From Candidatus Babeliales bacterium (GTDB lineage: Bacteria > Babelota > Babeliae > Babelales > Vermiphilaceae): a stretch of 32,007 nucleotides of DNA. Under the pieces are notes generated by a model, which worked only from the letters and a program-made list of their open reading frames with translations, did no database searches and had not been told where the DNA came from. The position numbers and the translations under genes are program-made. Where the stretch lies: the NCBI GenBank assembly GCA_044451405.1, contig JBIOKB010000007.1, positions 1-32,007 on the forward strand, read 5' to 3'. Positions 8,212-32,007 of the stretch are shown here, one piece after another (positions within the stretch are counted from its first letter, which is position 1; every line of letters begins with the position of its first letter).

Positions 8212-8955
8212 TTATTTGAGCCATGCAACGGTCATTTGACGTCCTGCATGAGCACCCTGGCGTCTATGGGAGAAGAAATTGTCATTACAGATGGTACACA
8301 CGTTATAACTGAGGCTAATAGCATCAGATTTAATACCATCTTTTTCTAATAATAGTGTATTAAATAAGGGAAGATCAAAATGATAATCTGATCCTATCTT
8401 TTGCATGGTTCTATCAGCCCAGGGAAACGTTGCAATATGATCACGAAATTCTTCAGTTACCGTATAACAGCAAGTTTTTGCACAGGGACCAAATAAGATG
8501 CATAGATGGGCTGGGTTCGTACCAAAAGCCTGCTCCATATGAGCAACTGCTTTTACAGCAATTTCTTGAACTGATCCTCGCCACCCTGCATGCACCAAAG
8601 CAAGTACATGATGCACTTTATCGTACATAACAATTGGCAAACAATCAGCGGTTAACACCCCGAGAGCTATTTCTTTATTCGTAATTAAATAATCACCGTC
8701 AAACAAAAAATTACAAAAGGGAGACTGAGAAAAGGGTGTTTTATCTTGCTCATCTGTTATAAGTATCCCCTGATCACTATGTGTTTGATGTAAAAATGTA
8801 AGACCATCAAGGCGCATTACTTTTTTAAGCTGCGTACAGGATTCATGATCCAAAAGGTTATTTTTCGCTGCAAAAGCACGAAACTGATCGGGGTACACAC
8901 TATCCTGTGCATCGCCAAAATAGACGGAGAATAGCGGATGGGTATGCAGTAACAT
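8212..8955 (-). CDS. pgeF: Peptidoglycan editing factor PgeF / YfiH-family purine nucleoside phosphorylase
   Basis: HQTHS, TADCLPI, HAGWRG, CT..NFFSHRR...GRQ motifs; lies downstream of ftsZ, as in many bacteria. Confidence 0.95.
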   Translation of the reverse strand: MLLHTHPLFSVYFGDAQDSVYPDQFRAFAAKNNLLDHESCTQLKKVMRLDGLTFLHQTHSDQGILITDEQDKTPFSQSPFCNFLFDGDYLITNKEIALGVLTADCLPIVMYDKVHHVLALVHAGWRGSVQEIAVKAVAHMEQAFGTNPAHLCILFGPCAKTCCYTVTEEFRDHIATFPWADRTMQKIGSDYHFDLPLFNTLLLEKDGIKSDAISLSYNVCTICNDNFFSHRRQGAHAGRQMTVAWLK

Positions 8956-18464: not shown

Positions 18465-18836
18465 ATGATCAAACAGCTATCCATAATAATGCTCTGTCTG
18501 ACTATCAGTACTGCTTATGCCGCAGAGCTAGACCCGCAACCCCTTGATATGAATAAAATTAATCGTATGCTTTCTTCCAGAAGCAAGCCTAAATCTCTAT
18601 CTGTAGCTTTTTATTGTATGCCAATCAACAATCCAGCAATAATCGAAGAATTATCTGGCATACAACCTGAAAAAGATAGGTATGCATATGCGGTTAAAAA
18701 AGCCCGTAAAGAAGCACAAAATGAGTATTGTCAACAATGCAAAGCTATTGATAACCCTGATTGGCTTGCAATTCTTCATGCTGCTCGTAAAAAATGGGGA
18801 ACTTTCGGGTTCTCTGAACAAACAATTAACAGGTAG
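18465..18836 (+). CDS. Small exported hypothetical protein
   Basis: Signal peptide MIKQLSIIMLCLTISTAYA followed by AEL; one CxxC (CQQC). Confidence 0.7.
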   Translation: MIKQLSIIMLCLTISTAYAAELDPQPLDMNKINRMLSSRSKPKSLSVAFYCMPINNPAIIEELSGIQPEKDRYAYAVKKARKEAQNEYCQQCKAIDNPDWLAILHAARKKWGTFGFSEQTINR

Positions 18837-19635
18837 TTGATAGACTACTTTTATATCTTCTTACCAGCTCTTCCATCTCAGCAACGGAAATAAGATGCGG
18901 TAATACACTGCCACCCGCAATAAGATCCGATAACGTAACTGCATGTGCTAGCTTAAATGGACCGATCTGCATACGTTCAAGTACATACGTAGTTGCACAG
19001 CTTCCCAATCGAACACCAATATCATGCACTAATGATCGAATATAGGTTCCATGTGATACGTGGGCGTCTATGGTAAAAAAAGGTGCATTGTGGGTGTAAA
19101 GGGAAATGTTGTATAACTGCACCGTGCGTTTTTTATCTACTGCTACTGCAGCAAGCTCCTCCATTGAAAGTCCCTTGCGCGCTAACGTTGATATACGTTC
19201 ACCCTGATATTTCAGGGCAGAAAAAATTGGTGGTATCTGCTCATACGTAGCACCAAATGATGCCAATGCATTACGTATATGTTCATGAGTAATAAGCGTT
19301 GCCTGCCCGCCGTAGCTTGCCGAGTCTGAGGACCCGGATAAGCGAAGGCTGGGCTCTAATTTTAATACAACCCCGGTAGGATCAAACGTATCGGTGAGTT
19401 CACCTAATTTACCGGTAGCACGATAGTGCTTATCAAGCGTGAGAAATGTATCCATGAGTCGTGTTGCAGATCTGCTAATACCAATAATCATAAGACCCGT
19501 GGCAAACGTATCAAGCGTCCCTGCATGACCAACTTTTACCGTACGGCCAACTAAGCGCTTTACCCGACTCACACACTGGGTTGAACTGATACCAGCAGGC
19601 TTTGCTACCAACACAAAACCTTGCATTGTATTCAT
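18826..19635 (-). CDS. truB: tRNA pseudouridine(55) synthase TruB with a ~17-aa in-frame insertion
   Basis: KPAGISS, VGHAGTLDTFATG (catalytic Asp), QIPPIFSALKYQG, SHGTYIRSL..DIG; extra peptide after GVVLKLEP. Confidence 0.95.
   Translation of the reverse strand: MNTMQGFVLVAKPAGISSTQCVSRVKRLVGRTVKVGHAGTLDTFATGLMIIGISRSATRLMDTFLTLDKHYRATGKLGELTDTFDPTGVVLKLEPSLRLSGSSDSASYGGQATLITHEHIRNALASFGATYEQIPPIFSALKYQGERISTLARKGLSMEELAAVAVDKKRTVQLYNISLYTHNAPFFTIDAHVSHGTYIRSLVHDIGVRLGSCATTYVLERMQIGPFKLAHAVTLSDLIAGGSVLPHLISVAEMEELVRRYKSSLSTTC
19301..19354. mobile_element. In-frame coding palindromic element, copy 1 (in truB)
   Basis: GCCTGCCCGCCGTAGCTTGCCGAGTCTGAGGACCCGGATAAGCGAAGGCTGG is 46/52 identical to 31814-31865, is 35/52 GC, folds as a hairpin and encodes SLRLSGSSDSASYGGQA. 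Confidence 0.88.
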
Positions 19636-30637: not shown

Positions 30638-30658
30638 TACCCCTAAAAAGGGGGTTTT
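30638..30658 (-). terminator. Weak hairpin after the symporter stop
   Basis: ACCCCT-AAAA-AGGGGGT next to the stop codon; short stem. Confidence 0.3.
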
Positions 30659-32007
30659 CAGTCATTGATCACATCAGATCGAGTATAGGCAAGAATTAAG
30701 AGAGCTATAAGGTTGGGCACCGCCACTAAAAAGAGTAGCGTATCCATAACCTCCCATATCAACCGCACGGGCGCAATAGGCCCTAAAAAAACTACGGTGA
30801 TGGCAAACCCGAGATACCAGCGTATCCACTGCTTGGTGCGTGCCACGGAAGTAACCGCTTGTGTGCCATTAAAAATGTTGCCAATGATGGTGGTAAGCAC
30901 AAATAACGTCACTGCACCAATTAAAATAAAGCGCCCAAACACGGGTGAATTCATTTTAAATACTTCATAAATGAGGGTGCTTCTAAAACTCCCACTCATC
31001 CATACCCCCGTCACCAGCACGAGTAATCCTGAAATTAATGATAAGCACGCATCGGCACCCATGGAATAGAGTGCAAGGATCCCTTGATCAGTTGGCCGCT
31101 TTGCATCAGACATTGCATGCGCTATTGATGAAGTACCAAGACCTGCTTCTGAAATAAAAATTGCTTGAAACGCCCCTGATTGCATCGCTTTAAGAATAGT
31201 AGCACCTGCAAATCCGCCCATGGCTGCTGCAGGAGACATAATACTATTGGCAACAAGCTTAAACGCCTGTGCAAGTGCGTGCAGATCACGAAATAAAATG
31301 AACAATGAAAAAGTAACATACAATACAAACATAATCGGCACTAATCTACTTGCAATAGAACCAACGCGGGAAGCTCCTCCTTGCAATACTACATAGGTAA
31401 TGCAGGCAAGCACGGCGCCCACTGCCCACACAGGAACCGCTTCTTGCGCAAATATCTGCGCTAAAGTATTTGCTTGTAATCCAGACCAGTACACAAAAAG
31501 AAACATCATCACGCCGATATACCAATATGCTAATACTGGATGCACGAGCTTAAGATATTGCATAGGACCACCAACAAGAGATCCGTCAGCCATTTTTACC
31601 CGCGTATATAATCCAAAGGTAACTTCAGTAAATTTAGTAGCTGATGCAAAAAAGATATATACAAGTAACCAAAATAATGCACCTGGGCCGCCCGCATAAA
31701 TTGCAATGGTTGGCCCTACAATGTTCCCCATGCCAATGGTTGTTGCCATAGCTGCAAACATTGCATGAAAGGGGTTGATCGTCTTACTTCCCTGCTCAGC
31801 TGCTTGACCACGTGCGTGTCCGCCGGAGCTTGCCGAGTCCGACGACCCGGATAAGCGTAGGCTGGAAGCACGAACCAATTTTAATAAACGTGGAAAGCCA
31901 CGGAACTGTATAAAGCGGAGCTTGAGTGTTAACAAAATTCCTGCACCAAAAAAGAGGATGGTAGATGGCAGGGCGATAACCTCATTAAAATATTGAAAAC
32001 AGGCAAG
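30658..32007 (-). CDS. Alanine/glycine:cation symporter (AGCS family, AlsT/AgcS-like), 5'-truncated by the window edge, with an in-frame insertion
   Basis: ATTIGMGNIVG...GGPGALFW, GGPMQYL, QANT, SEAGLGTSSIAHA, VPNLIAL. The frame stays open from 31935 to the window end (LACFQYFNEVIALPSTILFFGAGI...). Confidence 0.93.
   Translation of the reverse strand, partial: LACFQYFNEVIALPSTILFFGAGILLTLKLRFIQFRGFPRLLKLVRASSLRLSGSSDSASSGGHARGQAAEQGSKTINPFHAMFAAMATTIGMGNIVGPTIAIYAGGPGALFWLLVYIFFASATKFTEVTFGLYTRVKMADGSLVGGPMQYLKLVHPVLAYWYIGVMMFLFVYWSGLQANTLAQIFAQEAVPVWAVGAVLACITYVVLQGGASRVGSIASRLVPIMFVLYVTFSLFILFRDLHALAQAFKLVANSIMSPAAAMGGFAGATILKAMQSGAFQAIFISEAGLGTSSIAHAMSDAKRPTDQGILALYSMGADACLSLISGLLVLVTGVWMSGSFRSTLIYEVFKMNSPVFGRFILIGAVTLFVLTTIIGNIFNGTQAVTSVARTKQWIRWYLGFAITVVFLGPIAPVRLIWEVMDTLLFLVAVPNLIALLILAYTRSDVIND
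31814..31866. mobile_element. In-frame coding palindromic element, copy 2 (in the symporter gene)
   Basis: GCGTGTCCGCCGGAGCTTGCCGAGTCCGACGACCCGGATAAGCGTAGGCTGG is 46/52 identical to 19301-19352 and encodes SLRLSGSSDSASSGGHA. Confidence 0.88.

Follow-up and report, generated by a model that had tools for sequence, protein, structure and literature searches.

A REP/RPE-like hairpin repeat of Dependentiae, inserted in frame in truB and frequent at the CCA ends of tRNA and tmRNA genes

MITEs and terminator-like repeats, such as the pneumococcal SPRITE, are small, non-autonomous sequences with inverted arms, some of which act as, or derive from, 3'-end hairpins. Hairpins that are read by HUH enzymes bear a mismatch or a wobble. 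Dependentiae live as obligate parasites of protists and have genomes of 1 Mb, which the Babela genome paper describes as almost free of mobile DNA. REPs of the GTAG and CGTC classes are known inside genes of several phyla, where intragenic copies add 20-30 residues to proteins, and the cleavage of REP hairpins by RAYT has been described (Di Nocera et al., 2013; PMC3733652). The same paper records that truB of R. conorii is interrupted by RPE-1. According to a review, RPEs measure ~150 bp and are grouped in ten families, each family having its conserved peptide; in three of them, nearly half of the copies lie in ORFs. The element discussed here is a REP/RPE-like hairpin repeat of Dependentiae that likewise resides in truB. 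An earlier note on this DNA knew of no description of the family, and we also found none in the open full-text literature on Dependentiae and Babela. The Babela, TM6 comparative and Chromulinavorax genome papers, as covered by that search, make no mention of a palindrome, hairpin or stem-loop.

The window, meaning the whole stretch of DNA analysed (32,007 nucleotides), corresponds to contig C7 of a 1.02-Mb assembly that comprises 89 contigs, has a GC content of 40.3% and is 95.7% complete. Two copies of the element and their host genes lie in it:

18826..19635, minus strand: truB ORF of 269 aa, host of the first copy (Pfam TruB_N 5.5e-34, residues 31-199; TruB_C_2)
19302..19352, minus strand: truB copy, a 51-nt hairpin repeat giving ~16-17 residues in frame (PSLRLSGSSDSASYGG...); nhmmer 19303-19352, model positions 2-51
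19297-19357, minus strand: covariance-model match of the truB copy, 74.9 bits
30658..32007, minus strand: Na:Ala symporter ORF, 5' open at the window end (Pfam Na_Ala_symp 8.4e-70, residues 70-447)
31815..31865, minus strand: second copy, in frame in the N-terminal part of the sodium:alanine symporter; nhmmer 31816-31865
31810-31870, minus strand: covariance-model match of the symporter copy, 68.1 bits

The earlier note had described the copies as 52-bp stretches, 46/52 identical and with 67% GC. Pairwise comparison within the window (19301-19352 against 31814-31865) returns the same 46/52 and GC contents of 67.3% and 69.2%, respectively, versus 40.6% for the whole window. A 30-base core pattern with two free positions matches both window copies alone, against 0.00 matches expected from 100 dinucleotide shuffles. 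Folding returns the hairpin that the note had drawn for both copies, and on either strand (54 nt; -26.8 kcal/mol on the plus strand and -27.7 kcal/mol on the coding strand), and its placement of the six differences, including the compensated change of the outer pair C19306-G19353 to T31819-A31866, was reproduced. Orientation and frame are shared by the two hosts, as had been claimed: both copies lie on the minus strand within open frames and are translated in a common reading frame, as ...SLRLSGSSDSASYGGQA... within ORF 18826-19635 and as ...SLRLSGSSDSASSGGHA... within ORF 30658-32007. The peptide predicted from a host-gene copy is exemplified by LSGSSDSASYGG. The Pfam TruB_N match (residues 31-199) runs across the insert, and the GHAGTLD motif is kept, in agreement with the claim that the catalytic motifs of TruB are intact.

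The last 141 bases of the window (31867-32007) recur at contig C33:1-141, where they correspond to symporter residues 1-47, and C33 ends exactly at the element. Partial copies also stand at the ends of contigs C64, C33 and C36 of this genome. The element breaks the assembly.

Orthologues define the empty sites. TruB shows a 16-column gap at the place of the insert in 13/13 orthologues from relatives of the family and order, and in a wider set from many phyla the segment is missing in 33 of 34 other sequences. The symporter shows a 15-column gap at the copy in 11/11 orthologues from relatives. Because the segment is absent from 33/34 TruBs and from all 11 symporter orthologues, with no homologous stretch of equal length in its place, both copies are real insertions. 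The related-locus search with TruB returned distant phyla only, and the empty site is thus defined at the protein level; the genus is represented in the sample by this genome alone. In one relative (L009), about a dozen residues of unrelated sequence are inserted at this TruB site, which indicates that the site tolerates indels and bears out the proposal that the element entered a variable, tolerant segment. In an AlphaFold2 model of TruB built from a 35-row alignment (mean pLDDT 93.1, pTM 0.89), the 10-residue block 101-110 has a mean pLDDT of 54 and forms coil between strand 90-93 and helix 117-125. In the model, the TruB insert is thus a flexible loop at the surface of a fold that is confident elsewhere.

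Read on the coding strand, the element has an outer stem of 6 bp, then a 3x3 internal loop that is conserved, a helix of 4 bp, a 2/1 bulge and, at the apex, a stem of 7 bp, which contains one fixed G.U wobble. Pairing was compared between 36 copies of this genome and 102 copies in 80 loci of other genomes, among the matches listed:

Cells pairing: 88.3% in the 36 own copies; 92.4% in the 102 others
Cells pairing with the 3' partner slid: 25-50% in the 36 own copies; 22-53% in the 102 others
Pairs changed on both sides: 11/17 in the 36 own copies; 11/17 in the 102 others
Double-changed cells: 43 in the 36 own copies; 136 in the 102 others
Shuffles reaching the covariation score: 0/500 in the 36 own copies; 0/500 in the 102 others, counts that overstate the case because the copies are related, the 102-copy alignment also having been fitted to the model

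The outer stem covaries most clearly, appearing as CCAG/CTGG, CCCG/CGGG or CTCTCC/GGAGAG. The fixed G.U position is kept in 34 of the 36 own copies and in 94 of the 102 others among the matches listed; where it is altered, it becomes a mismatch and never a Watson-Crick pair. Apart from this wobble there are 12 G.U pairs versus 31 A.C mismatches, 15 of the 31 at the doubtful outermost pair. Taken as a test of the RNA strand, these counts give no clear signature, G.U not being the commoner. Intragenic copies preserve the hairpin as well as intergenic ones do. Covariation in the two sets of copies supports the view, already put forward in the earlier note, that the element is constrained as a hairpin. 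On the non-coding strand, GTAG stands ahead of the core stem-loop in 26/36 own copies, and GAAG or GGAG in the remainder.

Searches of this genome return 44 copies with iterated nhmmer (E<=0.01) and 48 with the covariance model (E<=1e-3). At least ten lie well within genes, each in sense orientation, on a crude gene map made from ORFs scored by codon usage. The intragenic copies are placed as follows:

TruB and the Na:Ala symporter: the two copies in the window
PheT: ahead of the B3_4 domain
SulP permease: between the transporter and STAS domains
MutL: in the interdomain linker
C2H2 zinc-finger protein, 384 aa, C25:281-1435: ahead of the first finger
Thioredoxin-domain protein
Rhodanese: C-terminal tail
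C39-like peptidase: C-terminal tail
454-aa protein without a Pfam match

The protein at C25:281-1435 has several C2H2 zinc fingers of eukaryotic type. The copy at residue 5 of the longest AlaRS frame probably sits in the leader, since the Pfam domain begins only at residue 53. Each intragenic copy of this genome keeps the host frame and brings no stops, and all three sense frames are in use, with readings of ...SLRLSG..SAS.GG..., ...AYPG.QARQA... and ...LIRAFRLGKLRR... TruB, the symporter, PheT and the peptidase tail share one frame, and MutL and the 454-aa protein have hybrid two-frame readings after 1-nt loop indels. The antisense strand of the element has stops in 2/3 frames, and sense-only survival in 13/13 genes is therefore only mildly surprising (0.75^13 ~0.02). 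In a Babeliaceae-labelled MAG, an antisense copy (L242:2885-2935) is read through in the only antisense frame that is open, within an epimerase-like ORF of 343 aa. The frame pattern fits a filter acting on insertions, not a selected peptide.

Most copies are intergenic, both on the gene map of this genome and in the pattern-scan loci among the matches listed. On the crude gene map, each of the six copies that occupy divergent spacers has sense orientation relative to the closer gene, and in one-directional spacers ~4 copies are sense and 5 antisense, so that any orientation rule outside genes and tRNA flanks is weak. One divergent spacer holds two outward-facing copies (C4:8084-8132 and 8296-8346), each of them sense to the gene whose ribosome-binding site and start codon follow within a few bases. 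Three copies of 64-91 nt (C10:5251-5319, C33:5470-5533 and L248:6997-7087) carry extra sequence in the apical loop. The extra piece in L248 resembles the outer frame of another module, which suggests nesting.

The element extends well beyond this genome. At family level, 42/61 genomes and 34/46 genera were matched by the covariance model (E<=1e-3), with up to 52 copies per genome; at order level (E<=1e-5), matches were found in 29/101 genomes and 10/21 families. A phylum-level sample, which held only families of the order Babeliales, gave 38/151 matched genomes. Scores exceed 70 bits in other families, and TruBs even within the own family are only ~45-51% identical. Such near-identity across families whose TruBs are ~50% identical is hard to explain without a reader or a mobiliser. 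When 185,579 species, each represented by one genome, were scanned for an exact pattern, at least 107 stretches matched. Among the matches listed, the labels are Candidatus Dependentiae, Babeliales, Babeliaceae and plain 'bacterium', together with several MAGs labelled Pseudomonadota, one Planctomycetaceae and one Clostridiales, tags that are taken as loose labels; no Rickettsia label occurs among them. Rfam, searched with the window segment 19200-19460 at a threshold of E up to 10, returned no curated-family match and a single chance-level hit (E 5.7). The family thus reaches across the whole sampled phylum (Candidatus Dependentiae, order Babeliales), not one lineage. The search for further copies in the genome and its relatives therefore succeeded (44-48 copies here, 42/61 genomes of the family), and the idea of a coding mini-element family confined to this lineage does not hold, since most copies are intergenic, the distribution is phylum-wide and the commonest location is the CCA of tRNA and tmRNA genes.

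In this genome, tRNA-Val(tac), tRNA-Phe and tRNA-Lys(ctt) are each followed by a same-strand copy that starts precisely at the CCA of the gene, and a fourth copy lies 22 nt past tRNA-Thr(cgt). The CCA-fused copies are:

C16:14246-14295, same strand as the tRNA: this genome
C24:9613-9661, same strand as the tRNA: this genome
C44:5440-5482, same strand as the tRNA: this genome
L134, L137, L138, L140, L146, L147, L149 and L151-L154, same strand: other loci, after tRNA or tmRNA genes

In all of these, the outer stem of the hairpin uses the tRNA or tmRNA gene's own CCA. In relatives, the best-scoring copy adjoins a tRNA or tmRNA gene in 11 of 30, and two more weak-hit loci have the same geometry. 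Among the matches listed, 32 of 104 copies in the 80 pattern-scan loci adjoin a tRNA or tmRNA 3' end and share its CCA, covering at least 14 amino-acid identities and tmRNA, and several further copies follow tRNA-like ends that aragorn does not call. Only 4/104 of these copies lie deep inside sense frames of at least 150 aa, which makes this genome unusual in its intragenic load. No other single context is as frequent as a position directly 3' of a tRNA or tmRNA gene. In this genome, no copy is found at the 3' flanks of RNase P RNA, SRP RNA or 5S rRNA, nor at its own tmRNA, and the link is therefore to CCA-ending genes, not to stable RNAs generally; a reading of the element as a general terminator of stable RNAs was rejected on the same flanks. 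A T-run within 30 nt downstream follows 10/26 tRNA-adjacent copies versus 21/61 others and is thus no commoner at tRNAs.

After 13 of the 35 aragorn calls in this genome there is a shared frame that runs from GTCT(T/A)CGC straight after the CCA to an end at GCTACGCCTGG and holds different inner hairpins, the truB-type element being one of them. The 3' motif of this frame occurs 20 times in the genome, in some cases away from tRNAs and twice inside long frames. Modules with other inner hairpins, often in tandem, are found at these 3' flanks:

C8:6751 and C8:23535: tRNA-Met
C27:7659 and C11:18548: tRNA-Arg
C27:9719, C29:10172 and C44:5218: tRNA-Leu
C20:4157 and C27:7808: tRNA-Ser

The modules sharing the frame form a superfamily, of which the element of truB is one member. 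An apparent target duplication of the tRNA end was considered and rejected, as it is mostly the start of the next tandem module, or a small hairpin and T-run.

Taken together, these observations are best accommodated by a phylum-wide hairpin of ~51 nt that has its home at CCA ends, whose intragenic copies are tolerated passengers and whose copying is host-driven, an account that we regard as probable as a whole. The home site lies directly 3' of the discriminator base of a tRNA or tmRNA gene, the first three bases of the element being the gene's CCA, and a further module, or a small hairpin and T-run, often comes next. There, the transcribed hairpin may take part in 3'-end formation, through termination, protection or processing, a role suggested by its position and strand only. 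The phylum-wide likeness of the sequence would be maintained because something reads the element. Copies evidently also arise at unrelated places, and the survivors within genes are those that keep the frame, bring no stop and fall in linkers, loops or tails. Their predicted translation is a disordered stretch of 15-17 residues with a sequence set by the frame hit alone. The copies in truB and the symporter are accordingly best read as tolerated passengers and not as selected peptide modules. The host may drive the copying, with recombination or a switch of template taking place at hairpins or where there is CCA microhomology, and this is favoured over an undetected enzyme because no transposase is linked to the element.

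Other explanations of the intragenic copies fare less well. An assembly artefact, in which the repeat produced a chimeric join, would find some encouragement in the contig breaks at copies (C33 at the symporter copy, and the partial copies at the ends of C64, C33 and C36), but both flanks of each window copy belong to one gene that aligns with orthologues on either side, and the truB copy is 12 kb away from the contig end; such an artefact has next to no chance of being correct. It is only slightly more credible, and still very improbable, that the shared peptide has been selected as a protein module, namely a functional Ser/Gly linker, as the common frame in TruB, the symporter, PheT and the peptidase tail might suggest, given that the remaining host genes use the other two frames or hybrids, that an antisense reading exists in another genome, that the insert is low-confidence coil in the AlphaFold2 model of TruB and that most copies lie outside genes. 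More plausible than either, although improbable in its own right, is an effect in RNA, whereby intragenic copies act in cleavage, stability or pausing for regulation, or leave the mRNA so that the peptide is never made. The hairpin is kept in intragenic as well as intergenic copies, and the same module stands at the RNA 3' ends of tRNA and tmRNA genes, yet every intragenic copy is stop-free and frame-keeping, which would be needless if it were spliced out, and the copies occupy linkers and tails, as translation would predict. The bulge-helix-bulge motif has 3-nt staggered bulges; the 4-bp helix of the element lies between 3x3 and 2x1 loops, so that archaeal-type splicing was rejected as a candidate, no EndA or RtcB having been found either. 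An RNase III site was likewise rejected, and loss of RNase III across the phylum is reported in the Babela genome paper. Searches of this genome for RNase III, the RtcB ligase and the tRNA-splicing endonuclease gave no match, which makes it unlikely that the copies are cut by RNase III or excised by splicing of the archaeal type. RNase E/G is present (C33:7080-7889).

As to how the copies spread, the element might be a classical REP/REPIN whose mobility depends on a Y1 (HUH) transposase, a RAYT or another, that works on hairpins in single-stranded DNA. The GTAG ahead of the core stem-loop on the non-coding strand in 26/36 own copies, the stem mismatch or wobble that is never repaired to Watson-Crick, the arrangement of modules in arrays and the presence of Y1_Tnp genes in 20 of the 61 genomes of the family would all suit this mechanism. 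However, the present genome has 44-48 copies and no Y1_Tnp; domain searches, which were limited to Y1_Tnp (PF01797), RVT_1 and the TnpB zinc ribbon, gave no match in it. Across the family, Y1_Tnp was found in 14/42 element-positive and 6/19 element-negative genomes and hence shows no association with the element. The Y1 genes examined in relatives belong to multi-copy, IS200-like units of ~565-567 bp, which have end hairpins of their own that are unrelated to the element, and no copy of the element lies nearer to such a unit than 237 nt. We therefore give a RAYT-type mechanism little credence. The units are:

L299:1310-1876 and L300:1324-1890, genome G004: IS200-like Y1 units
L304 and L305, genome G056: IS200-like Y1 units

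These multi-copy units contrast with the near-lack of mobile elements for which the phylum is described in the Babela genome paper. The earlier note had seen neither a target-site duplication nor a mobilising enzyme, and the search of the two window copies and the three domain searches gave the same answer. Flanking direct repeats measure at most 7 nt, at scattered distances, in 32 of 36 copies, the exceptions being 8, 8, 14 and 17 nt. The 14-nt and 17-nt repeats flank C17:3974-4022 and C38:5263-5304, respectively, and could reflect a duplication accompanying insertion or a later rearrangement. With 95.7% completeness and 89 contigs, the assembly could lack an enzyme gene, and a missing or novel mobilising enzyme is possible.

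A further alternative, which we hold to be unlikely though the most credible of those weighed against the account of host-driven copying, is that the hairpin is the recognition module of a dedicated CCA-end termination or processing system for tRNA and tmRNA precursors, with a lineage-specific protein reader. Such a system, if real, would account for ~50 nt that hardly differ between families in which the housekeeping proteins have diverged by half. Copies in 5' leaders and coding regions, including that of truB, would then place mRNAs under the same factor, and the result would be a phylum-wide post-transcriptional regulon spread by a transposase-free hairpin. Under the preferred account, in which intragenic copies are tolerated passengers, the element raises the questions of how short hairpins spread in reduced genomes and what reads hairpins at tRNA 3' ends. 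Palindromes that remodel proteins in an intracellular lineage would also be known from a second case, independent of Rickettsia, and in both the same gene, truB, is hit. In practical terms, MAGs of this phylum suffer from broken assemblies and inflated ORFs on account of the element.

Among described repeats, the REP/BIME GTAG class and the RPEs are the closest. Like the former, as far as its published description extends, the Dependentiae element is a short, GC-rich, imperfect palindrome with a GTAG-type tag by the stem-loop and tens of copies, mostly between genes, often arrayed (here as tandem modules after tRNA genes) and in some cases intragenic. Unlike REP/BIME, it has an extra outer stem that brings it to 51 nt, it is fused to the CCA of tRNA and tmRNA genes with its sequence kept phylum-wide, and no RAYT/Y1 transposase accompanies it. 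Dependentiae are not among the phyla given for GTAG repeats in the part of the survey consulted (Di Nocera et al., 2013; PMC3733652). With RPEs, it shares the character of palindromes of an obligate intracellular bacterium that are inserted in frame in unrelated housekeeping genes at tolerant sites, and truB is hit in both, by RPE-1 in R. conorii and by the present element in Dependentiae. Judged by their description in the review, RPEs are set apart by the element's length of 51 nt, its frame-dependent peptide, its mostly intergenic copies, its tRNA-end context and its other lineage. The earlier suggestion of an RPE-like element tolerated as a Ser/Gly linker is thus sound with regard to in-frame insertion at tolerant places, whereas the peptide varies with the frame and the likeness is greater to REP/BIME. 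The element also resembles MITEs and terminator-like repeats in being a small repeat with inverted arms; it differs from MITEs in having no target-site duplication at 32/36 copies and no autonomous partner (Y1_Tnp, RVT_1 and TnpB zinc ribbon searched), and from terminator-like repeats in that a T-run follows only a minority of copies. Judged on size and form (51 nt, GTAG-type tag, arrays), it is nearer to REP/BIME than to the ~150-bp RPEs. What distinguishes it from known intragenic repeats is its fusion to CCA, its phylum-wide conservation, its freedom from an associated Y1 transposase and its lineage.
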